Virus record (IMG/VR): IMGVR_UViG_3300024999_000055
Location: 42,331 to 106,330 of that record
From: a virus
Length of the DNA: 64,000 nucleotides
Strand: one strand, 5' to 3'
Shown here: piece after piece, positions 3,220-64,000 of the stretch
Position numbering within the stretch: the stretch's first letter is position 1
How the letters are laid out: each line of letters begins with the position of its first letter
Translations under genes and position numbers: made by a program
The notes under the pieces: generated by a model
The model's database searches: none
What the model was told of the DNA's origin: nothing
The model's input: the letters and a program-made list of their open reading frames with translations, nothing else

Positions 3220-6200
3220 GTATTATCTCCTTTATTTTTATAATTTATTAATTAATTATTTTCCAATATTTCTTTATAATAATCAATCCAATCTTGATTT
3301 TCTAATTTTTTCTTAACAACAATATCAAAATATTCTTTTCTCATATCTTGTAATGAAAATTTAGTTATTCCTTTCTTTTTAAGATTCTTATTTACCATTT
3401 TAATTATTTCTGTTCTATTCATTGGATAAAGTTTAATCAATCTTTCCTTCTCTGCTTTTTCTTCTTCCTCTAATCTAATTTTCTCTTCTTCGATTCTTTT
3501 TCTTTCTTCTTCTTGTTCATCTACAATACTATCCAAATCAATCTCTAACCTATTCCATTTACTCTCCATATGAGCAGGTATAACTACTTCTGGCACTAAC
3601 ACTTCTTTAATTTCAAACATCTCATAAGGTTCATAATCATAATTATAGTCTGTGAAATATGAACCATTTCTTTGTACAGAACGAGAAATTCCAAAATTAA
3701 ATTCTTGTATTTCCTGATAATCTCCATCCATTTCTATTAATTGACCTTGCTCAGTTTTGTATTGATATTTTCCTTGATCATCCCAATTATCATCTCCGAC
3801 ATCTTTAAATCCATAGATTTTACCATTGTGTGTATATGCAAAATTTTCTAAATCTTCTTTTCCTAGTTTCTTTACTATTTTTGCAAATAGGGTAATATTC
3901 ATATTTGAATTCTCCTTTTATTATTTATTTTTAAATCTACACCATTTAGGACTAAATATTGCTTGTAATTTTGGAATGCCTCTACCATAAATTTGTGCGA
4001 ATGAATTAAAATCAGGGTTTATAGTATCCATACAATGACCATATACTCCAAATATTTTTTGTTCTAAATTACCATTTGACCAATCATCTTTTTCAAAATA
4101 TTCACATTTACTACATTTAAAAATTTTCATAATATCCTCCTTTTAATTTAATATTGTAAATCAACACCAAATTTCTCTTTGGTTCAAATATTGAGTGTCA
4201 CAAACACAGTAATATCAATGGTTTGTGAATTGGTGATTTTATGATTTTTATACTTTATAAGCTAATTTTTTTCATTTCCAACCTATACAATTATAAACAT
4301 CACATAATAAATGTAAATTGTCATAAATAAGATTTTCTACTCTTGATTGTTTAGGTATTGTACAACCACTTAAACATCCTAAAATTGATTTTCTAAAAAC
4401 TGAAATACCTTCTTTAATCTCATTAATATAATCTTCCCAACTTTCTACTTGTATCACTCTTGATTGATGGTCTATTATATTATCATTATCATTATCATCT
4501 AATGATAAATTTGTTTCTATTATTTTAATCATATTACTTACTCTCCTTTTCCTCAAATATTTCTTTATATTTATCCACATTTATTTTACATTTATAATAT
4601 ATTTCATAATCTTTCCATTCACATTCCATAATATCTCTAATAGAAGTTATTCTTTCTTGAAAATATTCACATCCATAACAATTATCATCAGAACCTTTAT
4701 CATAGCATTTTTGATTGTATTCTCCAATAGCACCAAATGGACACCAACTATTTTTTGATTCATCATCATAAATTCTATTAGCAGGATGTTCACATTTAGG
4801 GAATCTCTCTTGATATGCTTGAATTTCTTGCAGTGAGTAGTAACCGTATTCTTTACATTTTTCATGTGGTAGAATTCCTAGTGTATAATCAATCCAATCC
4901 TGACTACGCATAAGATCTGAACGAGCACCTTGACCAAATCTAGCATAGAATAATTCTTGACCTGCTAATGGCATTTTGTTAATGAAATCTAATATTTCTT
5001 TTTCGTATTTGTAATTTAATTGCATCATATTATCTTCTGAATATGATTTTATAATTTCTAGTTTCCACCATTCTTGATTTGTTAAGGATAGGCAATTATC
5101 GCATAAATTTAGTCTACTTGAAAAGTTCGTAAATATAGAATTATGATTAAGTGTAGGAATGAGTATTTCATGTATTTGAGGGTATGATTGTAGACAATTG
5201 AAACATATAGAATCTGGATTTTCTATTGCAATGTGGTGAGGATTGATTGAATTGGTTGTTTCAATTAATTTTGTTGATTCATGCATATTTTATCTCCTTT
5301 CTAAATATATTATTATTGTATTAACTATTTAATTAGTTTTAAAGTTCCAAATTCTTTAAATTTTTCACTTTCTAATTCTTCTAATTCTAATTTATCAAGT
5401 TCTTCTTGTAATTCATTAATTCTATTTCTTAAAAATTGCTTCTCTTGCTCTAGTTTAAATTTTTCAATCTCTTTATTTATATTTTGTTCATTTGATTCAA
5501 ACTGTTCTTGATATTTCCAATAATCTCTCTCTTGCCCTTCCCATGCATAACTGCCTAAACTAATAACTTTTTTTATTCTAAATGCAGAAGCCGTAAAATC
5601 ACAACCATTACCACAACATCTATATTTTTCATTATATCCTTTATCTTCAGGTTCACATTCACAATATCCCCAATGTCTTTCATCTTTAGTAAATTCTATA
5701 TAATAACAATAATCATAATAAACATCTACCATATATTCACTTTCTTTTTCATTGTCTGGTTTTTCAATTAATATTCTAATTTTGCCATTTGTATAACCTC
5801 CAGAGTAATCTTCGTCATAACCGTTAATATAATATGTATGCTTTGTAATATCGTCTAAGAATTCTTTACAATTTTCAATTTGTTGGTCTATTACTGAAAT
5901 TATATATGGGATATCTAAGATTTTTTTGTTATAATTAATTCTGTTTTCATTTTCATTGTTTAAAGTGCTAATTAGATTTTGGATAAATTGGTCTTTGGTT
6001 GAAAGGTTAGATGTAGTCATAGGATAGTGTCTCTCCTTTTATTTTTTATTTTTATAATGTATTTTTAATTTCTTTCCATAAGAAATCACATAATTTATTT
6101 ACTCCATTAACTCTTACTAGTGGAGCATTATAATCATCTAATAATTCAATCATTTGTCCAATATTTAATAACGGATAATATTCATAATATACTTTTGTCC

Positions 6201-6687
6201 TTTCAAAACTTAATCCATTGCAATTATGTGTAAAACATTCAATACTTTCTTTTCCATTAACATTTAAATAATAAATATCACCCATTTTAATTCCTTTTGA
6301 TATCCACCATTTATATAGTTTTATTTTTTGCTCTTTTAATAATTCATTAAGTTGATTTATAGTAATTATTTGTTTCATAGAAAAACTCCTTATTTATATT
6401 AGTTTATTGAATATCTTGATTATTTCTTATTAATTCTTCCAATCCATTTAAACATTCTAATTCTTCAACTAAGTTTGCAATTTTACAAACAATTATTTCT
6501 TTTTTGTTAGGTATTTCAGATAATCCATAGCAATTGTCTAATAGAACATATTTACTGACTAGTTGGCAAATTTCAAAATAATTATCGCTTTCATGGTAAA
6601 ATCTACAATTCCATTTTATACATTTTAATTTTGTTGAATCTTTTTGTTCTTTTATTTCCATATAGTTTGTCCCTTCTCTTATGGTTA

Positions 6688-6716
6688 ATTATACATTTAT
6701 TTTTTTATTCTGTCAA
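6688..6716 (-). promoter_or_regulatory. sigma-A promoter
   Basis: TTGACA-17 nt-TATAAT on minus strand, upstream of ORF 6404..6661. Confidence 0.85.
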
Positions 6717-9896: not shown

Positions 9897-10094
9897 TTAT
9901 ATCTCCTTTACATATTTAATTGCTTCATTGAATTTCATAATTTTTCCATCTACTTGTAACATAGGCATACTTAAAAAACCCTTCTCCATCATAATATTTA
10001 TATCATTACATTCCTTATATGTAACTTGTTTTTGGTCTAATTTTTGTTTTAATATTTTACATTTGGAACAGTTATTAGAGTAAAGTAATATCAG
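9897..10094 (-). CDS. Glutaredoxin/NrdH-like redoxin (missing from ORF track; CTG or ATT start)
   Basis: Own translation (M)ILLYSNNCSKCKILKQKLDQKQVTYKECNDINIMMEKGFLSMPMLQVDGKIMKFNEAIKYVKEI*: CxxC and cis-Pro SMPML; AAAGGAGG RBS 8 nt upstream; stop lies 5 nt before the nrdD start. Confidence 0.88.
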   Translation of the reverse strand: MILLYSNNCSKCKILKQKLDQKQVTYKECNDINIMMEKGFLSMPMLQVDGKIMKFNEAIKYVKEI

Positions 10095-10140
10095 AATAAA
10101 ACCCTCCTTTTGATAAATTTATTTTAAATTTATTTTAAAA

Positions 10141-12795: not shown

Positions 12796-14201
12796 ATTTA
12801 TTACCTCTTAACTTTTTTCGTCATATTCCCATTTTAATCCTAATTCACATTCATTACATATTTCTTTACTAAATTTATGTTTACAATTACTGCAACTACT
12901 ATATAGGTTATTATAATCTTTCATATTAAATTGACTTCACTCTAATTTATTTATTATAAGGACATTTATGTAGTTTACATCCACAAATATCATGTGATAT
13001 GCATACATTATGTAAAAAAGGATATTCAGGATGATATGTTTTTAAATCATTGAGTACTTGCGAATAACATCTAGATATCATGCGCATTCCGCATTCAGAA
13101 CAATAATAACCTGCATTACCATTTCCTTCTGCTTCTAAATTATAATTAGTAAATTCGTGACAATTTAAACAATAATATTCATTATGAATTTTAATCACCT
13201 TCTTTACTTATTTTATTTAAATAAATGTTCATGATTACAATATTTCCAATCTAAATTTATATTGTGCATTAAATTCTTTAAATAATCATCTAATTGCTTA
13301 TGACTTTTAATAGGTGGTGATATTCTAATATTAGGATTACAAATAAATAACATTGTTCTTCTTAGATATAATAAATAATTTAAATGGAATTTATCATCCT
13401 TTCTTGCATCTTTATGATGAAAATCAAATATACCAGCACATTCATTATCAAATATAAAACCATTTTTATTAATTATATTTACTATTTTATCTCCATTCCA
13501 TTTTTTAAAAGGTGAATTAAGATAATGTCCTATTGGTTTCATATATTCCTCCTTTGAATAATACAAACAAACAATTCATTATATCTTTCCTAAATAAGAA
13601 TAATTAATTAAATATAATTTACTCGTATCTATATAATTAATATGATGTTTAGATTTTAAATACTCAATAAATTTATCTTTTGCCTCATCAACATTATTTG
13701 CTTTAGTTCTTACACAATGATTCATTATCCATTCTTCATCATAAATACAAACATATTCATCCATACAGTTAATCTCCTTTCTTTATAAAATGAAAGTTTT
13801 ATCATGATTTAATTACTAGATGTAGTATATAATTAATTTTAATATACAAGATATAGTATTTATAAATTTTGATACATTGTGGGTGGTTATACATAATTCA
13901 CTATTTTTATTATCTTGTAAATATTTTTTTATATTCTTATTTATTATTTCTTTATTAGTTTTATAATCATCACTTGAATAACAGCAATATGTTATTATTG
14001 CCTTCCCACAATTTTCACATGATTTTTCATGTGCTCCTTTATAGCAAGCGACACATTCAGAATTTTCTGCACCACATTCACTTTTATCATTATGTTTAAA
14101 ACATTCTCCATAATAATTTAAATTAACATCTTTTCCACATAAAAAACATTTACTATATTTCATAATATTTTATCTACTTTTTATTTAATATTACTTAAGT
14201 A

Positions 14202-14576: not shown

Positions 14577-16552
14577 GATTATTCATCTCCTTTTGTTTAT
14601 ATTATATTTTATATTTCTTAATAATGGACATTCGATCACTTCTTCACGTTCATTGAAATATGTATCAACTATTTCTGAAATTTTATTATTGTATAATTTA
14701 CATCCGTATTCAACCCAATATCTTATCCAAGTTCTAGTAGAATATTCACATTCAAAGCACATTTTTTATTCTCCTTATAATTTATCATAAGTCTTATCTC
14801 TTTCTTTAACAATTTTATATAGATAACTAGGTTTATTAATCGTATCCATAATTATTTCTTCTGTGATTTCTATTTCATTATCACATTCAGAACAATATTC
14901 ATAAGAGTAATTTAATATAGGTTGTAAACTATCAAATTCTGCTTCTTCACTATCTGATAATTTTTCCTTTTTATTTAATTCAAAATATCTAAGATACCTA
15001 TTTATCTTTTTTTCATCCATAATAATATAATTACAGCATATATACATTTTGTAGTATCTTTCTAATATTTGTTTTGATACTAAAAATTCTAATATTTTAT
15101 TTATATTCACAATCTCTTTTGACCAATTTTTAAATATTTTAGTTAATTTAGGTGTGTATTCATGTAAATAAGAATGAAATCCCCATTCCACTAAAAATTT
15201 ATCTAATTTAATCTTATCTCCTTCAGATATAAAGTTTAATTCTTTAATCTCAGGATAATGATGTACACCTAATAGTTCTGAATATTCTTGTAATTTTTTA
15301 TTGTCTATAATATCATTGATTTCTGATGTTAAATATCTGAATGAAAAATATGAAGGTAGTATTTTAGTAAAATCAGTCAATTCTTCTCTTGAGAATTGCT
15401 TAAATTCTTCAATGTTAATTTGTTTTAAATATGTATTAAATTCAGTGTATTTATTTATAATTGTTTGTAGATAATTATTCATATTTTAATCTCCTTTATC
15501 CTTTTCTTTCTGTTTCTTCTTAACTTTCTTAATTTCTAATGCTAATTTACTATCTCCTTCACCATTGTCTTCCTTTTTATCTTTCTTTAACTTTTTATCA
15601 CACCATTTTAATACTCCACAACAACCTACATAACCTTTTACAGTTTTATCTTTACATGTTGATCTAGGGAATTCCATATACATGTCATAACCTTCTTTTG
15701 CTGTCCAATTCATTTTAACAATTTCTGTGATTAGATTTGGACAATTGTTTTGGTTAGTTGTGGATTCTGTGGGGTATGTAGAGTCTATATTTTCTATTGT
15801 ATTGTCATTATTTTCGTTTTCTTCTTCGATATTATGTATGAAAGATACCTCCTTAAACTTCTATTCTATCAATTATCTCTTTTGGTTTACAATATCCTAT
15901 TTGACATTTACCACATAACCATTTCTTATCTAATTGATGCTCCCAACACCATGTACCATTATCTCTTCCTTCTTTTTCATCTGTAATATATCCGCAATGA
16001 GTACATGGATGAAATGATATTCTGTATCTTGTTCTTTTTAACATGATTTTAATCTCCTTTATTAATCTGCACACCTATCACATTTACCTGAATCAGTATA
16101 ATCAGCAAACAATACTCCGCATACTGGACAATGCTCTAAACAATCATCACAAAAAACATCATTATATTGTTCATATTTATTGTGTGGTTTTAATTCTGAT
16201 AACTTTAATAGTTTACCACAATCAGCACATTGTTTGTATTCGTCCATAATTTTATTCTCCTTTTTATTCTTATTATTTTATTAATTCATATTTTGCATTT
16301 AAATTGCTAAATGTTAAAGGGATAACTCCATTAACTATACCAAATTGATCACAATACCATATAACCCCATTCATTTTAGTTATATACCAATATTCATTTA
16401 TTGCATAATTTGCTTTAAATATTTGTCCTTCTTGAATTATATTGATAACTTCACTTAAACTAATAGGGTGATACATATTTATTCTTCCTTTCTTTTTTAT
16501 TTTAATTTCATCACCAATCCTCGAATTTATTCAAATATTCCTATTTGATTTG

Positions 16553-17767
16553 TTAGATTATATTAACTCTAACTGGATGTAAACCTACACCCTCTATTCC
16601 CTCTGCAAAAGCATCAGGAAATACTTTTTTAATAATCTGGTATGCACCATTTAAGTCTGCATTAATAAATTCACCTCCATTACTTTGAAATAATCCTCTT
16701 GCCACTCTTCTACTTTTATTATAATTTTCTTTACATGGTATTTCACCATCAAGAAAACTTGTACCAGAAGTATATGATTCTTCTGTTTCAATAAAATTAA
16801 TACCAACATTCTCACATTTGTATTTAATCTTTTCAATAAATAAACTATGTGGAATACCAACAAAATTCTGATTAACTTTCCTACTCATATTACTTTCTTG
16901 TTTCCAATCTTTATTTTTACCTACTACCACAGTATCGATATTATTCTCAATGCACCAATTAATTATGTATTTACTTGTTTTATGTATATAATCAGTTATT
17001 TTATTATTTCGTTTATTAGTTAATTGCTGTAGTTTATTACTCCAATTTTTATCATGTTTTAATTTTAAATCAGATTGTTTTTTAGATTTTTCTTTATTAT
17101 AATACTGATTTATAGATTTCAATGGTTTACCATTAATTATGAATGATTGTAATCCAATATTATTCCCTACAGTCGCCAAATTATCTATTCCAATATCTAT
17201 CCCTATTATATTGTTATTATAACTTATTTTTTCTGGAACATCAATTTCGTAAACAATTTCCATTATATATGTATCACTTTTTGGTATAAATCTCACTTGC
17301 ATAAGTTTACCATTTACATTAGTTCTTATTTTATTATTTAATGGTTTTAATTTACTCCAACTAAATCTTAAATAACCATCACTTATACTGAATTTAATAT
17401 TATCAATTATTAAATTATATCTTCCTTCTTTTTCTTTATAATTAGGAAGTTTAGGTTTACCTAAAAATTTATCTTTGTTTTTATTCCATTCTTTAATACC
17501 TGCAAAAAATGACCTCCAATTTTGATCAAGTAATTTTAAAGTTTGTTGACCTACATTGCTCCCTATTTCTTTATATGGTTCAGATTCTTTACACAACTGA
17601 AATAATTCATTATATCTAATCCATTTTTTATTATTTATAAATTCTTGACGAATTATATAATTAGCATAATTATAAAGATTTTTAGATTTAAAACATAACT
17701 CATCTATTAATTTCCATTGTGGATTATTCTTTTTAATGATATGTTGTTCAACTCTATTTGTTTTCAT
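16553..17767 (-). mobile_element. tnpB: TnpB (IS200/IS605-family RNA-guided nuclease), no TnpA, no Zn ribbon
   Basis: SKNLYNYANY, PKLPNYK, IGIDIGIDN (RuvC-I), EESYTS, INADLNGA (RuvC-III). Confidence 0.92.
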
Positions 17768-18029: not shown

Positions 18030-21000
18030 TTAATTTAAACATTTTATTAACATATCTTTTAAATGTGTTTGTTTGGTCGAAACACTGGTTTGTTTAATTG
18101 CATATCTCAATGCTCTATTTTCAGCACATAATACACAATATTCTTTTGCTCTAGTTAACATTGTATACACCATTTCCTTAGTTAATAATTTATAGTGAGA
18201 GTAATCCAACGCTGCTATTACATATTTTATTCCAGAACCCTGTGCCTTATGACAAGTCATTACATAGCCAAGAGATATTTTAGGTAAATGAGACTTAGGA
18301 ATATATATATTACCTTTATTATTAAAATTAACAATTAGAGTATTTCTTATATAATCAATATCAACTACAATTCCTAAATCTCCATTGAATATTGGAATTT
18401 CATCTCCATATTCATTTACTGTTTTATAATTATTTTTATTATTTAAGACTTTATCACCTATATAAATTGTGAAAGGATATTTTGAGTTATCTCCAACAAT
18501 TAACCCTTTTTTATTTTTAGTATCAATAACAATTTCCTGCAATAAATTATTTAAGTAGTAAGCACTTGCTTTTCCTCTTTCTTTCATTGGTACAATGACT
18601 TGAATATCAAATATGCTTTCAGTTTTTGGTAATAATTCTTTAAAGTGTTCTACAACCTTTGTATGAGTATTATTTTTGTCTTTATATATATCTAATTTTA
18701 AGTCTTGTAATTCTCCTCTAATTTCTATACCTGTGAAATCTTTATCAATAATTTGTTCTTGATTTTTAATTTTAATACTTTCTGTAATAATTGCTGATTT
18801 TTCTGCTTGTCTATGAATTTTTGTAAGTTTTACAATTTTTATATATCCACTTTGAATCATATCAAACATAATATTTCCGACACCAATAGATTCCAATTGA
18901 TGCTCGTCACCTAACATGATTAATTTTGATCCAGTTTCTATAGCTTGAATTAATTTATAAAAAATATCTGCCCCATCCATAGATATCTCATCATGAATAA
19001 TTATTTTTACAGGAAGTTTATTGTTTTTATTATATGTAAAACCAGTTTCAGGATTATATCCTAATAATCTATGAATTGTATAACCATCTTCACCAGTTAT
19101 TTCACTTAAATTACACGAAGCTCTACCTGATAATGCGGTTTGGGCAAAAGAATAGTTTTTCTTAAACACTTCTAATTCCCCTGCTACTGTGCTACTCTTT
19201 CCACAATTTCCAGTAATAAATATTTTATTATTCCTTCTTAATATTAACATTCCTGAAGGTACAGTGAAACAATATTTATATCCATCTAATGTTTTATATT
19301 TAGTTATTGGTGTTTTTGTGTGAGGATTAACAATAGTGATGTCTATATTATTTGTTGGTAAAACGCAATAACAAGGATTATCATATCTTTCGTCAATATA
19401 TATTGTCGCTCTAATACCACAAGCAGAAAATGCAAACTGCATAAAATCTGCACTTTCTTTTTCTATTGTAATAAATCTAGGCAGTGAATTTTTTGGACTT
19501 GAACTATCCCAATATTTATATTCATCAATTATTATTTTTAATTGATTATTTGAACATTTATACCAGTAACTATCAAATATTTTACTTCTTTTAGGAGCAT
19601 CAAAATAAATATATGTAAGATTATCTTTTGTAGTAATAGAATAATTAATATTACAATCATTTAATAATTGTAATGCTCTTTTTATTTTTCTTTCTTTTGA
19701 AAAACATAACCTACATCTATTTGTTGAGGTAGTATCGTGAAAATAACCGTCAGCATGTATACAAACCATTAGTCTAATTTCATTATCTGTTAAATCTATA
19801 CCATTTGATGAATAATTAAATGTTGTAATAAATTTACCGTCAAAACCATTTTTCTTTTTATTGTGCTTTTGAATCATCTCAGACATTTTAATATTTATAA
19901 TATTATTTTTATAATTTTTATATATTACTTTGTGTTCATCACATAAACACTGATTTGCCCCTCTTGTTTCAAAATGCCATAGGTATTCAGAAGGATATTT
20001 ATGATATTTTAACGGATTAACTAATTCAGAATTTCCATTTTTATTATATTGTAATACTTTATCACTCTCTTTATAATTTGATATTTTCGCCCATTTTACA
20101 CCATTGAAATATTCTGTATCACAATCTACACAACCTGCCGATCCCGTAATCATTACCACTTGATTTTCAAGAATAGTTTTAATCCCTTCTATTTGTTCTT
20201 CTGTAAATTCCCATCCTTGTCTTTGTTCTAGTTTTTGAATTCTATCTTCCCAATCTTTAAATTCAAAATAATTTTCTACTTCATTTAGCCTTTTTAACTC
20301 TTTGGCAATATTTTCTTCCAAGTTATAATATTTCATTAAGCTAATTTTATCTTGGTTTTCACTTGTCCAAATTATGTTTTGATTCTTCATTTCACGCAAT
20401 GCCTGTGTTAGAGTTTCTTGTGGTAATTCACATCCAATTGTCCCATCTACAGCATCTAGAAGATTATCTATATCCACCCATGTATTACCAATATATGCTT
20501 CCTGATGTAAATAGTATTTAACATACGCTTTTACTCTATTAATTGAATATTCCCCTAATCCACTATTTAAAGCCATTTCATCTGCTTTATCCCATCCAAT
20601 TCCATCAATTTCATCAATTAATATATATGGATTTTCCTCTATTTTTGCAATTACTGTATTTGGACTTCCATAAAAATCAACTAATTTTTCGATTGTATTG
20701 TTACTTAACCCATATTTATCTAATTTTACATATGCTTCTGAATAATCTTTACTGTTTTCATATTTTTCTATTAGTTTTAAAGCAGTTGGAACACCAATCC
20801 CTTTTACTGTGCATAATGCTTTAATATCATTATCTTCCAATACTTCAATAGGATTTTCAAAAGTTTTAAACAATTCAATACATTGTTTTTCAGGTAATAT
20901 TTTTTCTAAAAATTTATATTGATCTTCTTTATTATTTAATTTTATATCTATACACATGAAAATTATTTTATATTGTATGCCAAATCTTTCATTTTCTACT

Positions 21001-32547: not shown

Positions 32548-33193
32548 ATGTAATATTAGTCTCCTTTAAATTTTAATTTTTATTTTTACAATCTATATAC
32601 TTATTTAATAACTAAACTATCAATCGACTAATTAAATCCTACTCTTCATCCTCTTTCTCATCATCTTCAACATATAATCTCAGACTTCCTTCTTGCATTT
32701 CAACTACATTCCATCTTTCATTATGTTTTCCACCATCAGGAATAAATTCAATTTCAACTTTCTCTGGTTTTGTACCTTTGAATCCAGTTACATTTCCTAC
32801 TTTTAATTCTCCGTTGTCTTCTGAAATAAATCTAATTTTGTTTCCTGTAGAAATGGTTTGCAATTCTCCTGTATTAATTTCTACTTCAATTGATTTGTAC
32901 GGAACTTTTTCAACATTGACCATAAATAAATCATTTCTCCTTTTCATTATAGATTTTATCTTATTTTACACTTTAAAATCTTAGAAGCCTAACTTTTTAC
33001 AAATCATGACCAAATATTCCTTTTATCATGATTTTCTGAAAATTGACATGCTCTAAACCATTATTTTATAGGGGTTTGTGATTTGGTATATTTTGTAAAT
33101 CACCCTTTCTTTGAAATATTTTCTTACCTTTTCGATTTTTTGATGAAATTTGAATCATTTTTGATATTTTTCTTAATTCCTTCCTACATCACT

Positions 33194-33222
33194 ATTATAT
33201 TCCCATTCTGTATAATTGTCAA
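33194..33222 (-). promoter_or_regulatory. sigma-A promoter for the replication operon, overlapping an inverted repeat (33219..33267) after ligA
   Basis: TTGACA-17 nt-TATAAT; TCAAGAGAGAATTTAA...TTAAATTCTCTCTTGA stem. Confidence 0.8.
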
Positions 33223-35240: not shown

Positions 35241-36693
35241 ATGTAGCCTCCTTTAAATTTCTATTCCCATTATATTATCATTCTGTCAAGATTTTTTTTC
35301 ATTTTATAACATTCTGGATTATCTTCTGTAACATAAATACATCTAGGAAACTTAAAATATTTACATCCTTTTAGACTTGTATCACATTCCATATATAATC
35401 TTTCTCCACATCTTGTACAACGATAATGTTTTTCTAATTCGGAACCACAACTACGAATTGCTGTTGCTTCATATTTCCAATCATGAATACCAAGTAAACA
35501 ACGTATATTCATTTTATAATTTTTTCTCCTTTCAACACAAAAGAGGAATATCAAAGCAATATTTTACTCCCTATTCTCTAACATCCATTCTAAACAATAT
35601 TCTTCAGAAATCAAAGTTAAATCATCCAACACATCTGGTAAAAACGGCCCAGTTTGTGGATTATAAATTTCATATACCTTTCCATCTTTAATAATATATC
35701 CTTGTTCTTTAAGATATTTTAAATCCTTTTTATTATTTAAAATAAATTCCCTTAATTCACAAGGATATTCTAAATACCAATTATCACCTTTAATATTTGA
35801 CTTTCCTAAATTAGCTAAATAAATAGCTTTAGTATAATTATTATAAGTTACAAGTGCATAACAACCAATATCTTTTTCTTTGATATGATAATCTAAATAT
35901 TTTTGTTTTTCTTGTTTGTTTTTGATTTCCATAAGTTATCTCCTTTACTTATTTTATCAATTAAAACACTTAAATAATTTGCATCTTTTATTCCTGCTAT
36001 ACTCATACAAATCCATTTATTAATAAATTTATTTTCTTCCGTAGATAATTCATCCCATTTATCAGATATTTTTTTAAGTATTTCTGATAATGATTTCAAT
36101 TCATATTTATCTTTTCTTATATTAATTCCAACATTTAATAATACTTTTTCAATATGTTCTAAATTATTTTGATATGTATTATCTATTCTTTCTAATGTTT
36201 TATCATTTTCCATATTAATTCCTCCTATTTCATTACAAAATCTTTCTTTGGTGTTAATATTATTTTACTTTATTTATTTTATGTAAATAATCACTCATAA
36301 ATGCTTATATATCAAGGGTTTGCAGGTATTGATATGAGTAAAATCATAAATATACCTATTTTACGTATTTTACCCATATCATGATAAAACAGAATTTTTA
36401 TATTAACTAAAATTAACTCAAAATACAATATTAAGATTTATCAACTTTTTTATTAATTATTTACTACCAACTACAAGCACCACATAATGATCCACGATCT
36501 ATGCGACAACCGCATTTTGAGCATCTAGGACTACTGGATGAATTATAGGATGATCTAACTCCACCACAAAATTCACCAATAGTTTGCCCACCATTGCGAT
36601 GTACTTCTCGTCTATTTGCTTCATTAATCCTCCTTTTTTCTTCTTGAATTTTTCTCTCTACATCTTCAAATAAACCCATAATTAATCTCTCCT

Positions 36694-38536: not shown

Positions 38537-38565
38537 ATTTTAACATTTTGTTGTTAGTTTGTCAA
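38537..38565 (-). promoter_or_regulatory. sigma-A promoter (extended -10)
   Basis: TTGACA-17 nt-TAAAAT; shares ACAAAATGTTAAAATAAATA with the 10586 promoter. Confidence 0.8.
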
Positions 38566-38578
38566 CTATTATTTCTTA

Positions 38579-38652
38579 ACGAAATGCGTCTTTGGTAATG
38601 ATATTTATACTACATATAGTATATTGTAATAATTATATACTATATGTAGTAT
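38579..38652. repeat. Composite site: palindrome A + tandem NrdR-box-like pair
   Basis: ACGAAA-TGCGTC-TTTGGT, then ATACTACATATAGTAT (38607) and ATACTATATGTAGTAT (38637). Confidence 0.8.
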
Positions 38653-39717: not shown

Positions 39718-39754
39718 ATAAATTAATCCTCCATTTATTATATTTTAAGTTGTG

Positions 39755-39829
39755 ATAAATTTTATGTTTTGTTGTGATTTTTATACTACATATAGTATTC
39801 ACAATCTATATCTATATTATATGTAGTAT
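39755..39829. repeat. Composite site: palindrome A + tandem NrdR-box-like pair
   Basis: ATAAAT-TTTATG-TTTTGT, then boxes at 39783 and 39814 (31 bp apart). Confidence 0.8.
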
Positions 39830-42850: not shown

Positions 42851-42879
42851 ATTATACAATTATTTTTATATTGTGTCAA
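42851..42879 (-). promoter_or_regulatory. sigma-A promoter of rtcB
   Basis: TTGACA-17 nt-TATAAT. Confidence 0.85.
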
Positions 42880-43457
42880 TACCTAAAATCGTTACCAATC
42901 TAATTATTTGACATGATTTATTAATCCACTTTAATAAAATACTCAATACTAGATATTTCACTTCCTATAATTGCAACATTCTTTTCTGCACAATCTATTA
43001 ATTCAAAATGTGATAATTTAATTTCATTAGTTTGTTTAGGCATTATATTCATAATTAATTCCTCAAATTTAAGTTGTGTTTTAATCTTATATTCCTTACC
43101 GCTTTTCATGCAAATGATATAATCATACATAATATATTTTCTCCTTTTTTAACTATTTATAGAGTAATCTAACCTAACTTTTTTAACTTTATATTTATCC
43201 ATACTATCTCTTTCTATCCATTCTCTTACATATTCATTTGCTTCTGCTCTGGTATCAAAAGTAATTGCTTCACTAATTAACTTATTAATTTCATATTCAG
43301 TTTTAAAATCATTCATAGATTCAATTCTTGAGTAATATCCATCTTGGGTTATATTATATATAACATAATAAATATATGTTTCTGCTATTTTCATATATTA
43401 TCCTTTCTTAGATATTGTGTATGTATATTTAATATTATTTTTGAGTATAATCTTATT

Positions 43458-44550: not shown

Positions 44551-44652
44551 ATGAAAGCAAAATTTGGCTCAAATATTACCAAAGATTCCTTTGATCATGA
44601 TTTCTATACTATATGTAGTAGATATATGGTTTTGTATCACTACATATAGTAT
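44551..44652. repeat. Two palindrome-A sites + tandem NrdR-box-like pair
   Basis: ATGAAA-GCAAAA-TTTGGC; ACCAAA-GATTCC-TTTGAT-CATGATTT; boxes at 44606 and 44637. Confidence 0.8.
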
Positions 44653-47018: not shown

Positions 47019-47036
47019 ATTATAATCTCCTTAATT

Positions 47037-47075
47037 TATACTAAGGTAAGAATTAATATATCTTACCTTAGTATA
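47037..47075. other. Perfect 15-bp inverted repeat between the vWA and PP2C genes
   Basis: TATACTAAGGTAAGA-9 nt-TCTTACCTTAGTATA. Confidence 0.85.
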
Positions 47076-47091
47076 TTTATGTTTTTATTTA

Positions 47092-47766
47092 TTACATTGT
47101 AAAGAAATCATCTGTTTTATTTACTACATTTTTAGAACTTTCAATAACAGATTTTGATAAACAATTAAACGCCTTTCTTAATTCTGATGCAGAACTCTTA
47201 ACATCAAGTATATTTTTAAAATCTAATTGTTTAGCAATACTTGTTGCTCCTCCACCAAAACTTATAAATGCAGTTGTAATTTCTTCATTGTTAAGTGTCT
47301 GGATACTTCTTTTAGCATCTGATATTACATTTCTTGAAGAAGTATTATCACCATCACTAAATATTGCAAATACTGCTTTAACCCTCATTCCTTGATTTTT
47401 TAGAAATGTTATATAGTTAGTTAATTTCTCACTACCTTCTACGATTACATCATATAATGCCGTCATGCCATTTGAGGAATAAGCAATATCAAAATCTGAT
47501 ACTTTTTTATATCCTCCAACATTAATATAATCTGCAAAATCTGCTCTTGCTACAAGGATTTCGTCAATTTCTTTTGAATCTAATAGTGCATTTTTAAATT
47601 CATTTAATGAAAATTTCATGTCAGATACAAATGGATACATTGAACCAGAACCATCAATACCTACAAAGATAAGATTTACACTTTCATTATCAATTTCTTC
47701 TACAGAAGTATTCTCAATTTCAATTTCGTCCATACCTAAAATATCTAATTCGTTTGTCATAGTCAT
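47092..47766 (-). CDS. vWA domain protein (TerY-like)
   Basis: MIDAS IDGSGSM, TALYD, IFSDG. Confidence 0.88.
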   Translation of the reverse strand: MTMTNELDILGMDEIEIENTSVEEIDNESVNLIFVGIDGSGSMYPFVSDMKFSLNEFKNALLDSKEIDEILVARADFADYINVGGYKKVSDFDIAYSSNGMTALYDVIVEGSEKLTNYITFLKNQGMRVKAVFAIFSDGDNTSSRNVISDAKRSIQTLNNEEITTAFISFGGGATSIAKQLDFKNILDVKSSASELRKAFNCLSKSVIESSKNVVNKTDDFFTM

Positions 47767-47812
47767 AATATATTCCTCCTATTATTTTTATTATTTTATA
47801 TTTTTATTATCT

Positions 47813-48774: not shown

Positions 48775-48803
48775 ATTCTACCATACTAGTTAGTGACTGT
48801 CAA
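48775..48803 (-). promoter_or_regulatory. sigma-A promoter of the four-gene operon
   Basis: TTGACA-17 nt-TAGAAT with extended TG. Confidence 0.8.
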
Positions 48804-48851
48804 CATATTTATTTTAATATTCTATTAATATTATACTTTATTTAGATCATG

Positions 48852-48925
48852 ACAAAACCAATATTTTATATTGAAATTTTCCTACATATAGTAGTATTTA
48901 ATTATTTAACCACTATATGTAGTAT
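48852..48925. repeat. Composite site: palindrome A + tandem NrdR-box-like pair
   Basis: ATCATG-ACAAAA-CCAATA-TTTTAT; boxes at 48879 and 48910. Confidence 0.8.
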
Positions 48926-49147: not shown

Positions 49148-49771
49148 TTATTCCTCCTCTTCATCCCATTCTTCTAACAATTCTATTGCTTCACTATAAC
49201 CTTTCCAGTTATCCACTCCTGCACATTTAAGTGCTTCTAAAAAATTACTATCTTTTAATAATTTATTATATTCTTCTAACGTAATATTTATAGTTTCATT
49301 ATTATATGTATTAAATTTCTCAATCAATTTAAAACATCTAGGTTCAATACTCTTATCAATATTAACACCAGGAACAAATGTTAATCCTTCGGCCACATTA
49401 TCTCCTTGTTGAGTAGAAACTTGAACTAAACAACCATTAGGTAAATTGCATACCTTTGTTGATTTCATCCATTTTTGATTTTTAGAACTTGCTTTACATA
49501 ATAATGCAAAAGTATCTCCGTCACCATAAACTTTAATATCATTAATTTTCTCTTTTGCTTGCTCAACGTTTTGAATGTTTAATGTTTTACTATTCATATT
49601 ATTTTCCTCCTCTTTATTATTTGATATTTTTCTTTTAAATTCTTTACATCCACCAGGAGTGCAATCACCTTTGCCACAATTATTATCATTTCTACAATAA
49701 CCCATACATAAATTATCATTAAATTGCTTTGCACAATCAAAACAACAATCTACTTTATTATATTTATTCAT
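49148..49771 (-). CDS. Three-part fusion protein (Cys-rich / WMKSTK domain / GVDNWxGY domain)
   Basis: Distinct segments; an internal RBS-like GAGGAGG before MNSKTL suggests a second start. Confidence 0.6.
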   Translation of the reverse strand: MNKYNKVDCCFDCAKQFNDNLCMGYCRNDNNCGKGDCTPGGCKEFKRKISNNKEEENNMNSKTLNIQNVEQAKEKINDIKVYGDGDTFALLCKASSKNQKWMKSTKVCNLPNGCLVQVSTQQGDNVAEGLTFVPGVNIDKSIEPRCFKLIEKFNTYNNETINITLEEYNKLLKDSNFLEALKCAGVDNWKGYSEAIELLEEWDEEEE

Positions 49772-51496
49772 ATGTATTCATTATCTCCTTTACATTTTTT
49801 TAAAATCTCAAATGCCATGCGTTCATCGCTCCACTTAACGCACCATTATCACCAAGCAATAAATATCCACAAAACATAATAAAAGTAGTAGTTACAATGT
49901 GACTTACCTCAATACTACCAATAACCTTTGTGTTTAATAATTCTTTCATAATAATCTCTCCTCTTTATTTTTATATTTTTCAAATATCATAATATATTTT
50001 ATTATCTTTAACTGCACCATTAACATCTTTTATTTCTTTAATATAATATCTACTATCACAATCATTCTTACTACTAAAAGTATGAATAATTGTTGTTATA
50101 TAATATTTATTATTATCTATATCTTTAACTTTTATCTTATAAGTATGTGCCCAATAATTATTATTACCATAAATATAAATGATAATATTAATTTTATAAT
50201 CAAAATTTTCACCTCCTATATGTTTTATTAATTTTAACTTTTTTATTAAAATCAGGATAATATACTTTTGCTAATTTCCTATGTTGTTTATTAACTATAT
50301 TAAAATCTTTTGTATTGAGTGAAAATTCTAATGTTTTATATTTATTTTTATTTAATGTAGATATTATAAATACTAATAGAAAATGAATTGCAAATATTGT
50401 TAACCACAATCTAAAAAGATTAATAATATCAATAAATAACATTCCTATAATTATAGCACAAATAAAATTTAAAAAACAAAATAAATTAATTTCTAAATAA
50501 TTATTATGAATAAATTTAACTCTATCATTATAATTAAGATATAAATAACTTAACCAAAATTCTAGTAATATCATTGAATTATTCCTTTGTATTAAGTTTA
50601 ATATCGTCACGAAACATTCAATTGATTAAATTTGCACCGTCCAAATATTTTCATCATTATCTTTTAAGCATTCTGCATCTAATTTATTTTCATTATTAAG
50701 TTGTAATAATTTATCAATTAATTTCATAATCTTATTCTCCTTTCTCTTCTCTACATAAACTTTCATGAATACTACTTGCAATACTAATATACTCTGCCAT
50801 TTCATGTAATTCTTCTCTTAATTCTAATTGATCTGCTAATTCTTCGGCAAATCTTTTATATTCTTGCCATGTAATATTAGAAATAAAATTTTTAACTACT
50901 TCTTTATCATGTTCTAAATCAACTGCCATTTTTACAATGAATTCTTTAAATTCATCAATTGCAATATTAATATTTTCTTCTCTTTGTTCTTTAGACATCT
51001 CACTAAATTTCATAGTGTTTATCCTTTCTATTTCAATATTAAAGTTAGATATTTCTATATATTGTGGTCGTGTATATAACCACAATATATAGAATACATA
51101 TACTTTTATGTATAATTTTACTTTTCCTTCTTACTCTTACTCCCTACACTATTTGTAACATTACTAATTGATTTTTTCATATTATCAATATCAGTAAGTA
51201 AAAATACCATAGCCTGCTCTTTGGTAAATCCAATTTCAACATAAGCGTCGAATTGATTCTTTCTTACTTTTGCTTTAGCAGTAAAATATTCAGTATTATT
51301 TGAAAAGTCCTTGTATACTTCTAATAATTCTTGACCAACCATATAAACTAATGGTTTAAATTGATCTACCTGCTCTTTAATCATCCCCTTTAATTCATCT
51401 GGATTCTCCAATAAATTGTATAATAATTTGTTCATATTAACATTCTCCTTTTCGTTTTTATATTTTTATTTAATAGCAATACATTATAACGTATCA

Positions 51497-52063: not shown

Positions 52064-53618
52064 ATTGTATTCTCCCTTCTATTTATCTTTAATATTTCTA
52101 TTCAACCAATCGCAATATTTTTGACATTCTTCTTTACTTTTAAATCCTAGTCTCTCGCCATATGATTTATTTTTATGCAATTCAATAATACTTTCATCAA
52201 ATTCATCAACAACATTATAAATTTTAAATTCTTGATAATCATAATCATAACTATTTCTATCTTTACTAGGAGAATAACTTCTACTAAAATAAAATTTTCT
52301 TTCTGAAGAATATCTACTATCTCGTTTACTAAATTTAATCATTATAATTACACTTATAGCAGGAACATATTTACTTAACATTTTTGCACAAGCACATGCA
52401 GTTTTAGTGATTTCACCATTTGGAAATTTTGCAACTAATTTTCTCTCTTTATTACATAAGTTACATTTTTCATTTTGGTAACGCTCTATATCAGCAAACC
52501 ATACTTCACACTCTTCTATATATTGCTTTAAAGTATCACCGATATTACTTTGATAAAATTCATTAGTGACTTCTCTTTTAAGATTTTCTTCTTTATATTT
52601 TAGATCATTTTCTTTATTTAAAATATCTCTTTCACGTTGTTTATATTTATTATTTTCTTCTTTTAATCTTACATTTTCATCCTTGATATTCTCAATTTGT
52701 GACTTAACACTATCTAATAAAGCATCTTTCATTTTTTGTTGATATTCTATTAAAATTTCATCCGCTAAAGTTGGTTCATAATAAGGTGGTTCTTCATAAT
52801 AATCGTACATATTTTCAATCTCCTTTTTTATTTATTAAATTATTACAATTTTAGATTCATGCAATATCCAAGTGCCATTATTTAAATTATTATAAACTTG
52901 TTTTCCTACATAATTATTATCATATGTAATTCCATTGTCAACAGCAGTTAATAAATATCTATCTTTATCTGAATTTTTTGAAACAATATAATAACTTTTA
53001 CCATCACAATGAGATAGAAAGAATGGTGTTTCTGGTATTTCTATTTTTTTAGAATTATTATTATTTTCTATTTTAATTTTATACATATTCATTTTCTCCT
53101 TTTTTTGTTTATTAAATTAAAACCAAAGATAAGTTTGATCATATATTAATTTATTTTTAATTTAATCTATATAATCACATTGCAAATTATCTGTTTCCTT
53201 GCCACATATAGGACAATCAAATATCGCAACTTCTAATCCTTCATACTCTGTAGTTTCTTTTACAGCAATATCCATAGAATTAAATAAACCATTACACTTA
53301 TTACATTTCATATTAGGCAATTCCATATTTTCTCCTTTGTTCTATATTATTCTATTCTTCTACAATTTGAATCATTTCAACAGTATTAGGTGAGAATCCA
53401 ACACCCATTAAAAAACACTTAAACTCTTCTACTAATAACTCAATTTGAGTTTGAATCTCTGAATCTACTTTCATAAGTGTTTTGATAAGTCTACTTTCAT
53501 TATTAAATTCGTCAATGTAAGCAAAATCAATTTTAACTTTAGATTCATTTTTATGTTCTATATCAATCATATGTATTTTTTCTCCTTTCGTAAGTTTTAT
53601 TATTTAATAACTGATTAT

Positions 53619-62295: not shown

Positions 62296-62907
62296 TTATC
62301 TCCATAAATGTTTACAAACTTCATCATACAACTCAAAATCCACATTTCTTATACTACTAATATAACTTTTTATAGTTTTTACATCTAACTCAAATATTTC
62401 ACTTGTTGCTTTTAAAGTTAATTTATCATTAACAATAGTCTTGCAAAGATTCAATCTTTCTTTAACATTTTTCATTTTTCTTATTCCAGAACGTATTTTG
62501 ATAGATTTAAGTTTATTTAATTCTATCATTTCTAATACCATAACATATAATTCAGGGTCATTATATTTAACATAGTTATGGAATAAATAATATATAGAGC
62601 GATTACTAGAATCAAAATGTATTCCAGTTTGTTTCATTGTACTTCCACAAATAAAATATTCACAAATTTCTTCATAGATACTGTTTAAGTTTTTCAATAA
62701 ATGATTTTGATGTTTTTCTTTTCTATCTTTTAAACAATTTTGGACTTTTGTATGTAATTCGGAATCAATATTTTCAATCATTTGTGTATAATTAAAAACA
62801 GTTTTAAAATTGATCCCGAATATATCTGCTGTTTTTCTATAAGAAAGATTGTGTTCTACTATATGTTCACATACTTTAATGATTAGTTCTTTGTTTATAG
62901 GTTTCAT
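62296..62907 (-). CDS. Triple SpoIIID-like HTH repeat protein
   Basis: Three units of IV..x.T....A..FG....TV......I...D.EL...V...L. Confidence 0.65.
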   Translation of the reverse strand: MKPINKELIIKVCEHIVEHNLSYRKTADIFGINFKTVFNYTQMIENIDSELHTKVQNCLKDRKEKHQNHLLKNLNSIYEEICEYFICGSTMKQTGIHFDSSNRSIYYLFHNYVKYNDPELYVMVLEMIELNKLKSIKIRSGIRKMKNVKERLNLCKTIVNDKLTLKATSEIFELDVKTIKSYISSIRNVDFELYDEVCKHLWR

Positions 62908-64000
62908 TATATTATATCACCTAAACTTACTTTTTAAATTCAATATATACTCGCAATAACCTTTCATTTTCATAATATCAAAATTTAATTTATCATTTTT
63001 AATTCCTAAAAAATATTCACATGTCTTGCCATTTAGTCTACAATCACCTTTTTTGATTACTTCTTTTGGACATCTATAATCTAATGTTTCAATGTTACCC
63101 AAATTATCTCCTGAACAGATAATATATGCTTTGGATTCATTGTTTTTTGTGGTCATTTGAATCATTCCTTATCATATATTTTCCCACTATTCTACCACAC
63201 CATAATGCCTTTTCGCAATTTCAAATGTTATTTCATTCACTGTAAATAAACATGGCATATCCCAATATTGATTATTAATTTCTTTTGCATATTCATCTCT
63301 GATATTTCTAACCAATGCATCTAAAGGAAGTGTACATTTCCTATTATATTCCATAATTTCATCAAATGCTTGCTTAATTTCTTCCTCTGTTAAATTTTTA
63401 ATTCTCTGTGCAATTGAACTTAGTTTTCTCATTATTAAAGTCCTCCTTAATTTTTAATTATTATGATAATATCTATTCTACAAATGTTTTATTTATCCTT
63501 CTTATAATTGCCTTTCTTTTTATTTGTGCATCCCTCAAGATATTTACAATCTTTACAATTTAAATTATGTAATCTCGGAGGATTCATACAAACACCTTTT
63601 GGTGGGATTAAAAGTTCAGGTCTGTCATGTATACTACTCATTAAATCATTCACATTTCCTTAATATTTATTTCATTTACTTTTACCTTACGCATATAATA
63701 ACACAATGTAAAAATAAATACAAGCATTATTTTAAGTTTTTTTTGCAAAAATATAACTCAGCACAAAAGAGTTATTTTATCATGATTTCCGATCCCGCAA
63801 ATCCTTATAAATCAAGGGTTTCTGAATATAGGAAAATAAGATTTCTAATGTTTTTATTGATTTTTACCATATATTTCTATATATTATCATATATTACCAT
63901 CAAAACTACAATATCTCTTATAATATTCCCAAAATATTAACTTAATGATATAATATTAATTAATATTCAGCAAATTCTTATAAATATCGACAAAAAACAA

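Follow-up and report, generated by a model that had tools for sequence, protein, structure and literature searches.

The window (the whole 64,000-nucleotide stretch analysed here) comes from a phage of an uncultured groundwater clade with 25% GC, and all of its genes lie on the minus strand. Its DNA polymerase shares 41% identity with SPbeta YorL across 99% of the length and, on sequence grounds, the phage is a member of the SPbeta/phi3T lineage. An earlier examination of the letters alone (the sequence-only reading) had reported some 15 dif/lox-shaped palindromes sharing an 18-bp core, AYVAAW-N6-WTTBRT, at gene junctions. These recurring palindromes are real, and the core is the centre of a 34-bp motif with two-fold symmetry, hereafter the dyad, composed of two 14-bp arms around a fixed 6-bp spacer. 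On the coding strand, its consensus reads AAATYAT-N-AYMAAA, any 6-bp spacer, and then the mirror image.

The leftward arm starts at a 'head' dyad (63755..63788; matrix score 26.6), with a copy of a 25-nt stem-loop repeat (63798..63822, minus strand; 2 mismatches to consensus) exactly 9 nt upstream. Further left are dyads at 53114..53147 (score 23.4; 21 nt before a start codon), 50601..50634 (17.3) and 48844..48877 (23.5). The last has an NrdR box pair at 2 nt (48880..48924), and 40 nt after it sits a sigma-A promoter (48803..48775) that heads isochorismatase-like, PP2C and kinase genes. Another NrdR box pair (44607..44651) lies 3 nt from the dyad at 44570..44603 (24.4), and a 12/12 sigma-A promoter (42879..42851), upstream of RtcB, begins 6 nt after the dyad at 42886..42919 (18.0). 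The PAPS-reductase-family gene (38992-39717, Pfam) is preceded by a dyad at 39747..39780 (22.9), accompanied by an NrdR pair (39784..39828) in which the critical C4/G13 position is missing from one box. At 38571..38604 (23.8), a near-consensus sigma-A promoter (38565..38537) begins 5 nt after the dyad, and an NrdR pair with two perfect boxes (38608..38651; 18-nt perfect inverted repeat) lies 3 nt from it.

Two dyads follow at 36376..36409 (19.4) and 36227..36260 (core 36235; 25.2), the second 13 nt before a start codon and with a stem-loop copy (36298..36322, minus strand) 37 nt upstream. The best copy, at 33001..33034, is as the sequence-only reading described it, with near-perfect 14-bp arms; it has the top matrix score (30.3) and forms the sole stable hairpin (-9.6 kcal/mol). 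The replication block at 18030-32547 is indeed free of dyads, its single regex match (26145) being coding and below threshold. Beyond it, a dyad at 16505..16538 (21.9) comes directly after the TnpB gene 16553-17767 (Pfam). Next is a dyad at 13777..13810 (core 13785; 20.9), 12 nt before a start codon. The degenerate NrdR pair found 3 nt from it (13814..13858; 31 bp from one box start to the next) overlaps the 3' end of ORF 13816-14163, and both of its 16-mers retain C4, A6, A8, T9, T11 and G13. The leftmost copies are a weak dyad at 10088..10121 (core 10096; 14.0), absent from the earlier list, and one at 4158..4191 (core 4166-4183; 26.3), 27 nt before the next start codon and with a degenerate stem-loop ahead of it on the coding strand.

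Over the whole window, AYVAAW-N6-WTTBRT is marginally enriched, with 18 matches against 11.4 ± 3.4 expected (5 of 100 shuffles reach 18). The intergenic enrichment proposed as a check is clear: 14 of the 18 matches are intergenic against 1.72 ± 1.26 expected from dinucleotide shuffles of the window's own intergenic regions (about 13% of the window), and none of 500 shuffles reaches 14. Across four related genomes, 66 of 106 core matches are intergenic, intergenic DNA being 12-19% of the sequence. A symmetrised 34-nt matrix (threshold 14; about 0 matches per genome by chance) identifies 19 dyads in the window's genome (G000) and 8-35 in each of three related phages (35 in G002, 16 in G003 and 8 in G001; null about 0), counts that are partly circular for these training genomes because the matrix was trained on regex-selected sites; the matches in phi3T and SPbeta and the spacer test are free of this circularity. 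In 177 kb of loci from unrelated phages the matrix has only four matches. Of the 15 strong sites initially listed, the matrix recovers 14, all but 44551; it picks up no weaker copy, missing all five (1481, 17793, 35550, 44011 and 60141). One match outside the window, at genome position 14542, is an ordinary terminator.

Several properties bear on the kind of site the dyad represents. When the spacer was scanned from 0 to 14, 66 intergenic matches were found at N6 versus 6-21 at each other spacing; coding matches stayed flat. As first noted, the arms are conserved and the spacers all differ: every spacer is distinct within each of four genomes (19/19 in the window's genome, and 35/35, 16/16 and 8/8 in the relatives). 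The two halves show mirror-image base frequencies, weakly conserved positions included, and conservation extends into the flanks (-7 A, -4 T, -3 Y, +22 R, +23 A, +26 T). Arm covariation is absent in 58 oriented sites, the pair L-3/R+22, for example, occurring as CA 15, TA 13, TG 12 and CG 12 times, and the hairpins are weak (mean -2.8 kcal/mol, most copies 0 to -4). Because the arms do not covary, the hairpins are weak and only the 6-bp spacer is enriched, the dyad is best read as a site in double-stranded DNA that a symmetric protein would recognise. To judge from these features of the letters, the dyads behave as places where a paired DNA-binding protein docks, that is as a gene switch, and not like recombination sites.

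The dyad ends 16-37 nt before a start codon in 33 of 58 sites. A sigma-A -35 hexamer begins 5-6 nt after the dyads with cores at 38579 and 42894 and after one at genome position 37680, outside the window; around most dyads, no sigma-A promoter can be recognised within 90-110 nt. A symmetric site directly before the ribosome-binding site, often with no promoter nearby, would be an unusual place for a classical operator.

The upstream side of the dyad carries further modules at fixed distances. NrdR pairs precede a dyad with a gap of 2-3 nt in 10 of 12 cases, five pairs lying in the window; 10 of 19 copies of the 25-nt stem-loop precede one at exactly 9 nt; and an SroF box is found at -17 of two phi3T dyads. 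These offsets could also result from whole-module spread by duplication instead of functional coupling.

[quoted passage not shown] The pairs described here match the published search expression and spacing (PMC12051234): the distances between box starts in the window are 30, 31, 31, 31 and 31 bp, so that 14-15 bp separate the two boxes, and all six conserved positions are retained in 9 of 10 window boxes, box 39814 having lost C4. The identical paired box adjoins RNR genes in 8 of 10 bacterial loci tested and precedes nrdD, nrdJ and nrdB in Clostridium, Romboutsia, Anaerococcus and other genomes, with the same six positions, partial palindromy and 14-15 bp between 16-bp boxes. Because the identical pair stands beside bacterial RNR genes, the window pairs are, by sequence, genuine NrdR-type operators in a new setting. 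Unlike the RNR-operon pairs, they are fused to a dyad at a fixed 2-3 nt and stand before the PAPS-reductase-family gene, the isochorismatase-like/PP2C/kinase set and unknowns. No RNR or ATP-cone was found in 106 kb of the window's genome, the genes downstream of the pairs are not RNRs, and no NrdR gene was seen in the phage.

The dyad is also conserved outside this clade. The matrix finds 10 sites in phi3Ts (null 0), where the spacer scan peaks at N6 (28 versus 4-12); the phi3Ts dyads keep the same flanks and even the same downstream ribosome-binding-site context, and no NrdR box pair was found in that phage. SPbeta has 8 dyad sites. We found no description of the 34-bp dyad as a distinct element in the accessible literature.

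The explanation we favour, to which we give about an even chance, is that the dyad is a predicted symmetric-protein site used throughout the SPbeta lineage as a per-gene control point, with signal-specific operators attached upstream. More specifically, we infer that the dyad is bound by a symmetric (dimeric) protein which phages throughout the SPbeta lineage have conserved. Sitting beside the gene and abutting the ribosome-binding site or, less often, occupying about -41 to -75 relative to a strong sigma-A promoter, the dyad would serve as a transcription control point for that gene, as an operator or a roadblock. Its upstream side would take varied operators, NrdR box pairs or the 25-nt stem-loop in this clade and the SroF box in phi3T. 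At the five NrdR composites, host NrdR with dATP and ATP would keep the downstream genes off, and these would be released once phage DNA replication alters the nucleotide pool. Whether this amounts to an SPbeta-lineage system undescribed to date, with one symmetric factor, interchangeable upstream operators and clade genes wired to host NrdR, is a more tentative proposition, which we regard as possible but doubtful. If true, one factor would read a 34-bp dyad before dozens of early and accessory genes in phages that range from those of Bacillus subtilis to the groundwater clade, and phage genes with no role in nucleotide reduction would be tied to the host dATP/ATP sensor NrdR and switched on when replication perturbs the dNTP pool.

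A related reading assigns the dyad to a protein already known from the lineage. One of the two options in the sequence-only reading was that the sites are operators and that the gene for their recombinase-fold regulator lies outside the window. The operator part of this proposal is supported by mirror halves that vary independently, a rigid spacer and a lineage-specific distribution. In its concrete form, the dyad would be the operator of the clade's MrpR/SroF recombinase-fold master repressor, two subunits occupying the inverted 14-bp arms in the ancestral core-site geometry; we consider this rather unlikely. The 14-6-14 layout is typical of recombinase-fold proteins, and MrpR of SPbeta has a dispersed operator (PMC10516654). 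Genes of this kind do exist outside the window, as had been suggested: an MrpR homologue is present in the relatives G002, G003, G005 and L106; it scores 42-53 bits with PF22822, whose cut-off is 27, and matches PDB structures 9rd5 (E 1e-22) and 8a0a/8bj6 (E 1e-10 to 1e-15) over about 300 residues, with YopQ-YopR synteny retained. The 106 kb of the window's genome contain no MrpR-family gene; the alignment of the window with G003 continues as far as the end of the contig, stopping 1.2 kb before the MrpR-like gene, and synteny predicts the gene 1.2 kb past that end. Furthermore, the head dyad, spacer included, is conserved about 1.4 kb downstream of the MrpR-like gene in G003, G005 and L106. 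An HU-family gene is not present, and MrpR/SroF is the only recombinase-fold or regulator candidate in common with SPbeta, but its known box differs.

The published boxes, SPBRE and Phi3TRE, read by the MrpR (YopR, SroF) master repressor, resemble the dyad in belonging to the same lineage and in being a conserved element repeated between genes along the early arm, with about 10 ChAP-seq peaks in SPbeta. They are asymmetric, 15-26 bp long and bound by one monomer, SroF binding a 26-bp box (bioRxiv 10.1101/2025.11.27.690993), whereas the dyad is a symmetric 14-6-14 site; the SroF box sequence is unrelated to it. phi3Ts carries both elements, with about 25-30 box-like copies, and 9 of 13 dyads there have no box within 80 nt. 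By layout and letters, the dyad is thus judged an element separate from the SPBRE/Phi3TRE box. None of the 8 SPbeta dyads precedes a ChAP-seq target of MrpR (ten genes, PMC10516654). MrpR/SroF proteins are only about 25% identical between lineages, yet the dyad sequence is conserved, and G002 has no dyad within 4 kb of its MrpR-like gene. Because the box is different and asymmetric and no SPbeta dyad lies at the ten MrpR-bound promoters, MrpR is probably not the protein that reads the dyad.

Alternatively, the dyad might be a core promoter-type element for a lineage-specific transcription machinery, such as a phage factor redirecting host RNA polymerase, with the NrdR and SroF boxes as its operators. 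This would account for a constant element beside the gene, for known repressor operators (NrdR pairs, SroF box) abutting or overlapping it as operators do promoters, for the scarcity of recognisable sigma-A promoters around most dyads, and for conservation across hosts as different as Bacillus and the host of a 25% GC groundwater phage. However, promoters are directional and the base frequencies of the dyad are mirror-symmetric; no arrangement of its blocks yields a sigma-A-like -35/-10 spacing or the key -11 A/-7 T; and several dyads have a strong sigma-A promoter on their downstream side. YonO, the lineage's own polymerase, for which one late transcript is reported (PMC8270828), was found in G001 only. 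We consider a promoter-type element unlikely.

The dyad could also act as an RNA or single-stranded DNA hairpin, that is a 5'-UTR stabiliser, processing site, weak terminator or translational element. It is part of the transcribed sense strand, immediately ahead of ribosome-binding sites, the copy at 33009 forms a good fold, and coding-strand folds are slightly stabler than those of the opposite strand (-2.8 versus -2.0 kcal/mol, p = 0.04). Core positions 3/16 and 6/13 pair slightly above independence (p = 0.03 and 0.012), and coding-strand G-U pairs outnumber A-C pairs (15 versus 7). This pairing excess and G-U bias leave room for a minor structural contribution, although the bias can be explained by the G>C strand skew. 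Against a hairpin, the variable positions show no covariation and the folding energies are low, the loop is exactly 6 throughout, unlike in hairpin families, and the dyad has no Rfam match. A scan of the dyad sites for intrinsic terminators (G+C-rich stem plus U-tract) found none, and the dyads have no U-tract. A hairpin function is, in our view, quite improbable.

The other option of the sequence-only reading was that the dyads are site-specific recombination core sites, integron-like or Xer/dif-like, bounding exchangeable cassettes. The geometry fits: dif and loxP likewise have inverted arms of 11-14 bp around a central region of 6-8 bp, and the dyad has 14-bp arms exactly 6 bp apart. A homology block ends at 9 of 10 informative motif junctions versus 25 of 40 other junctions, homology spans none of the 10 motif junctions versus 10 of the 40 others, and at the core 53122 homology with G003 begins at the left edge of the dyad (53114..53147). 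Two TnpB genes end beside a dyad, and the relative G001 encodes an Xer-sized tyrosine recombinase. However, gene-content and homology breaks are not significantly commoner at motif junctions (p = 0.14-0.56). dif and loxP need identical central regions and an active recombinase, whereas every dyad spacer differs within a genome, so that no two sites could recombine by a crossover-homology-dependent mechanism, and no active enzyme was found. No PF00589 protein is encoded in 106 kb of G000, in G002 (82% complete, and with the most sites, 35) or in G003, all incomplete genomes. The MrpR-like proteins lack the HxxR box (no His/Arg there), and a low-confidence alignment suggests that their Arg I and Lys have been replaced. 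Furthermore, dyads come in 15-35 copies and hug start codons, a placement that recombination does not require. Exchangeable cassettes are therefore very improbable. The integron attC, a 57-141-bp imperfect hairpin conserved in structure, variable in sequence, with R/L boxes and served by the IntI integrase, does not resemble the dyad: the dyad is 34 bp, conserved in sequence and unconstrained in pairing, and no integrase was found in the 106 kb of the window's genome.

The per-gene control point favoured here has partial counterparts in other phages. The promoter-early stem-loop (PeSL) cassettes of T4-type phages, like the dyads, are repeated regulatory modules between small accessory genes in plastic regions, tending to lie at mosaic boundaries. 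They contain a recognisable early sigma-70 promoter and have been shown to mediate shuffling, whereas the dyad is a symmetric site without a recognisable promoter, whose association with breakpoints is only a non-significant trend. The C1 repressor of phage P1 acts at well over a dozen operators scattered over a genome of about 100 kb, before many genes and operons. These operators are asymmetric 17-mers read by a monomer and show no homology to the symmetric dyads; what they have in common with them is the arrangement, dispersed copies before many separate genes.

The window is the final 64 kb of a 106,330-bp IMG/VR phage record (24.9% GC) whose completeness is estimated by CheckV at 57%, and all of its real genes lie on the minus strand. 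Their products include a RecD2-like helicase, Pol III alpha, an NAD-dependent ligase, RtcB, a PAPS-reductase-family protein, a Ser/Thr kinase, PP2C, a TnpB and many small unknowns. Among the 50,697 isolated phages compared, SPbeta YorL and phi3T provide the best matches to the polymerase (41% identity across 99% of the length), and the core genes of the window have no megablast match. A large serine recombinase (543-aa ORF; Resolvase domain, 89.5 bits; homologue at phi3Ts ORF 102-1676) is encoded from position 32171 of the whole record onward, about 10 kb ahead of the window start, where two gene arms diverge, and indicates a temperate lifestyle. Given this gene and the polymerase match, the phage belongs to the SPbeta lineage as a distant and probably temperate member. 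Its source is groundwater/sediment metagenomes, and the 14 sequence sets containing it are all DNA metagenome contigs from groundwater, sediment or soil. Within the window, neither the Rfam nor the tRNA scan returned a match. A 207-aa protein encoded at 49148-49771 (minus) matches at its C-terminus the RecBCD-inhibitor domain of phage T7 gp5.9 (PF25708, 61 bits).

A sequence-only reading of the window had listed 15 strong and five weaker palindromes sharing the 18-bp core AYVAAW-N6-WTTBRT. Counted across the whole window, this degenerate core barely exceeds chance (18 matches vs 11.4 +/- 3.4 in shuffles); because this test was only marginal, intergenic-only and spacer-length tests were used instead. 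Fourteen of the 18 matches are intergenic, in 13% of the window, where dinucleotide shuffles of the same regions give 1.7 +/- 1.3 and none of 500 reaches 14. The palindromes are therefore real and concentrated between genes, and the same pattern is found in three related contigs compared at full length (G001, G002 and G003), with 66 of 106 core matches intergenic when the four genomes are summed. A symmetrised 34-nt matrix (two 14-bp arms and a 6-bp spacer, hereafter the dyad) detects 19 sites in this phage, 35 in G002, 16 in G003 and 8 in G001, for a chance expectation near zero. Of the 15 strong palindromes it recovers 14; the five weaker ones are all missed. The sequence AAATCATGAT is not enriched as a free-standing motif and matters only as a flank of the dyad.

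To define the element, we aligned 58 sites, each oriented by its downstream gene. Conservation extends well outside the core, to A at -7, T at -4, Y at -3, R at +22, A at +23 (53/58) and T at +26, and the base frequencies of the two halves are mirror images down to the weak positions (for position 0, A18 G16 T14 C10; for its mirror, A20 G16 T13 C9). Variable arm positions are nonetheless independent of each other within a site: the combination L-3/R+22 is CA in 15, TA in 13, TG in 12 and CG in 12 cases, with a slight pairing excess at two core positions only. Predicted folds of the dyad are weak (mean -2.8 kcal/mol), the exception being the copy at 33001-33034; a strand-asymmetry folding test gave only a small difference, confounded by G>C skew. 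Finally, only the N6 spacing is enriched, with 66 intergenic matches vs 6-21 at each other spacing from 0 to 14, while coding matches stay flat. Taken together, independent arms, weak folds and a fixed 6-bp spacer indicate a site on double-stranded DNA for a putative rigid, two-fold symmetric protein, rather than a hairpin. The 6-bp spacers are all distinct within each genome and, over all dyad sites of the four genomes, richer in G+C than the genome (42% vs 25%). Position 12 of the site avoids T as well, so the centre of the site is constrained by something other than sequence identity.

The location of the sites is equally regular. In 33 of the 58, the core ends 16-37 nt ahead of a start codon, so that the 34-bp site abuts the Shine-Dalgarno sequence. 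The best explanation of the dyads is that they are sites, immediately ahead of gene starts, for a putative symmetric DNA-binding protein that belongs to the SPbeta lineage. A minority is followed by a near-consensus sigma-A promoter, whose -35 hexamer begins 5-6 nt past the site at 38579, at 42894 and at one site outside the window, and 40 nt past it at 48852. Neither the dyad nor the adjoining NrdR region (described below) reads as a sigma-A promoter itself, as a consistent -35/-10 register is absent. Two other repeats adjoin the upstream side of the dyad at fixed distances. One is a 25-nt stem-loop repeat, counted by fuzzy consensus search since a strict hairpin search proved too strict; it has zero matches in shuffled sequence, and at 10 of its 19 sense-strand copies a dyad lies exactly 9 nt downstream. 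Upstream of the best dyad, window positions 33194-33267 look like a separate operator-promoter unit, in which a sigma-A promoter matching at 12/12 positions (33222..33194) overlaps a perfect 16-nt inverted repeat (33219-33234 / 33252-33267).

The second adjoining repeat consists of paired 14-mers, TACTAYATRTAGTA, whose starts lie 30-31 bp apart. Five such pairs occur in the window, each fused to a dyad, and of the 12 pairs counted in three genomes, 10 have a dyad downstream at a distance of 2-3 nt. Single boxes of the TACTAYATRTAGTA type are also over-represented in the window (13 matches vs 3.8 +/- 1.9; none of 100 shuffles reaches 13). The pairs satisfy the search expression and spacing published for NrdR box pairs (PMC12051234, section 4.6), and 9 of the 10 window boxes, read as 16-mers, keep all six highly conserved NrdR-box positions C4, A6, A8, T9, T11 and G13 (PMC13584703). 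Furthermore, the exact paired pattern is found in 33 bacterial genomes from several phyla, where 8 of 10 adjoining ORFs tested are ribonucleotide reductases (RNRs; five NrdD, two NrdJ and one NrdB). On these sequence matches, the paired boxes are predicted NrdR operators. The exact pattern is also present in 32 viral contigs before a variety of genes, among them those for NAD-dependent ligase and HNH endonucleases, and none of the genes downstream of the window pairs encodes an RNR; an NrdR box pair therefore need not mean an RNR promoter. Since no NrdR-like gene was seen in the recovered record or in the relatives, any reading of the boxes would fall to the NrdR of the host. The host NrdR regulon is reportedly derepressed during lytic infection (PMC6755750), which offers a plausible rationale: disturbance of the dNTP pool by replication would turn on the phage genes behind NrdR pairs. 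Our literature search found no description of NrdR boxes in phages, and such wiring of non-RNR phage genes appears undescribed in the literature searched.

Several observations adjoin this system. The gene run downstream of the composite at 48852 (44662-48721, minus) has its own sigma-A promoter (48803..48775) and encodes an isochorismatase-like protein (weak match), an unknown protein, a PP2C phosphatase (PF13672) and a Ser/Thr kinase (PF00069). At 51053-51094, a perfect 16-nt inverted repeat has arms that satisfy the six NrdR-box positions; its box starts are 26-28 bp apart, outside the tolerated spacing, and no dyad adjoins it, so it may be a decayed or non-functional pair. The relative G002 carries a strict NrdR-type pair at 119876, at the 5' end of its own ATP-cone RNR gene (781-aa ORF, ATP-cone 119741-119995), and further strict pairs at 36851 and 73238.

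We then considered which protein might read the dyad. The sequence-only reading had suggested operators for a recombinase-fold regulator encoded outside the window, and such a protein does exist in relatives. Contigs G002, G003, G005 and L106 encode a protein with the N-terminal core-binding domain of MrpR, the SPbeta-family master repressor (PF22822, 42-53 bits vs a cut-off of 27), which matches the solved MrpR/YopR and SroF structures near full length and sits in the SPbeta YopQ-YopR gene order. Wider sampling of such loci yielded these four contigs only, all of the same clade; the G002 copy lies at 47187-48251. Alignment of the window to G003 (89% identity) continues to the contig end and stops 1.2 kb before the G003 MrpR-like gene, and the arm-head dyad at 63755-63788 is conserved together with its spacer about 1.4 kb downstream of this gene in three relatives. 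Comparison with model phages, however, argues against MrpR as the reader. The target of SroF is an asymmetric 26-bp box, to which a monomer binds (bioRxiv 10.1101/2025.11.27.690993). Phage phi3Ts contains about 25-30 copies of this box and, separately, the dyad (10 matrix sites, null 0; N6 peak 28 vs 4-12), with the same flanks as in the clade and in places the same downstream ribosome-binding context; a SroF box abuts the dyad at two places, and 9 of 13 dyads have none within 80 nt. SPbeta has 8 dyads, and the ten MrpR-bound promoters found by ChAP-seq (PMC10516654) are preceded by none of them; copies lie, for example, ahead of yosG, mtbP and yotJ. Given the asymmetric SroF box, its coexistence with the dyad in phi3Ts and the position of SPbeta dyads away from MrpR promoters, the dyad is an element in its own right, present across the lineage, and the MrpR/SroF box is among several modules added on its upstream side.

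Two other candidates were set aside: an HU-family protein, as the clade lacks an HU gene, and YopQ/SroE, which has no Pfam or PDB match and no known relatives or function. The 'palindrome' features annotated in SPbeta (NC_001884.1, 77856-77871 and 82394-82411, near yopM and yopR/yopS) are unrelated to the dyad in sequence. Two genes upstream of its YopQ-like/MrpR-like pair, G002 encodes an AgrB homologue (PF04647, 127 bits; 44585-45271, L084:4585-5271), roughly where SPbeta phages have the arbitrium peptide system; it may provide a different peptide-signalling input to the lysis-lysogeny switch.

Dispersed operators of a phage master regulator are a known idea, as in SPbeta MrpR and P1 C1. The closest known system is the dispersed set of MrpR operators (SPBRE boxes) of the same phage family, of which the dyad is not a member: it is a distinct second repeat of the SPbeta lineage, conserved more widely than the MrpR boxes. 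We found no description of it in a literature search that included SPbeta reviews. Should the dyad prove to be bound by a protein, a model temperate phage family would have a central regulator yet to be found, and because the motif is present in SPbeta and phi3T, the question is answerable in Bacillus subtilis. Both are genetically tractable model phages. In NrdR pairs fused to non-RNR genes, a phage would clearly have co-opted a metabolite sensor of its host for gene timing.

The alternative that the dyads are recombination sites bounding exchangeable cassettes is, by comparison, very improbable. Junctions carrying the motif do tend to be mosaic borders, with a homology block ending at 9 of 10 and spanning none of 10, but ordinary junctions behave similarly (block end at 25/40, spanned at 10/40; p = 0.14-0.18) and junction-level breakpoint tests give p = 0.35 and 0.56, so that the comparison with related phages provides trends only. 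The spacers, moreover, all differ within each genome, and a search for tyrosine recombinases (PF00589) found none in the recovered record (57% complete), in G002 (82% complete, with the most sites) or in G003. As for the MrpR-like proteins, His/Arg are absent at the expected HxxR box, and in a low-confidence profile alignment to a true integrase (13% probability) Arg I and the catalytic Lys seem to have been replaced. Geometry resembling lox or dif is by itself no indicator of recombination; the conserved dyads may serve as microhomology for ordinary recombination.

Two TnpB genes, one at window positions 16553-17767 (minus; OrfB_IS605, 94 bits, with a Cas12f1-like TNB domain) and one outside the window at genome positions 23216-24505, each precede a small stem-loop with a dyad site beyond it. 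Their 3' flanks have about 23 nt in common, reaching into the left arm of the dyad, and some dyad copies may have been spread by IS605-type elements or may be landing places for them.
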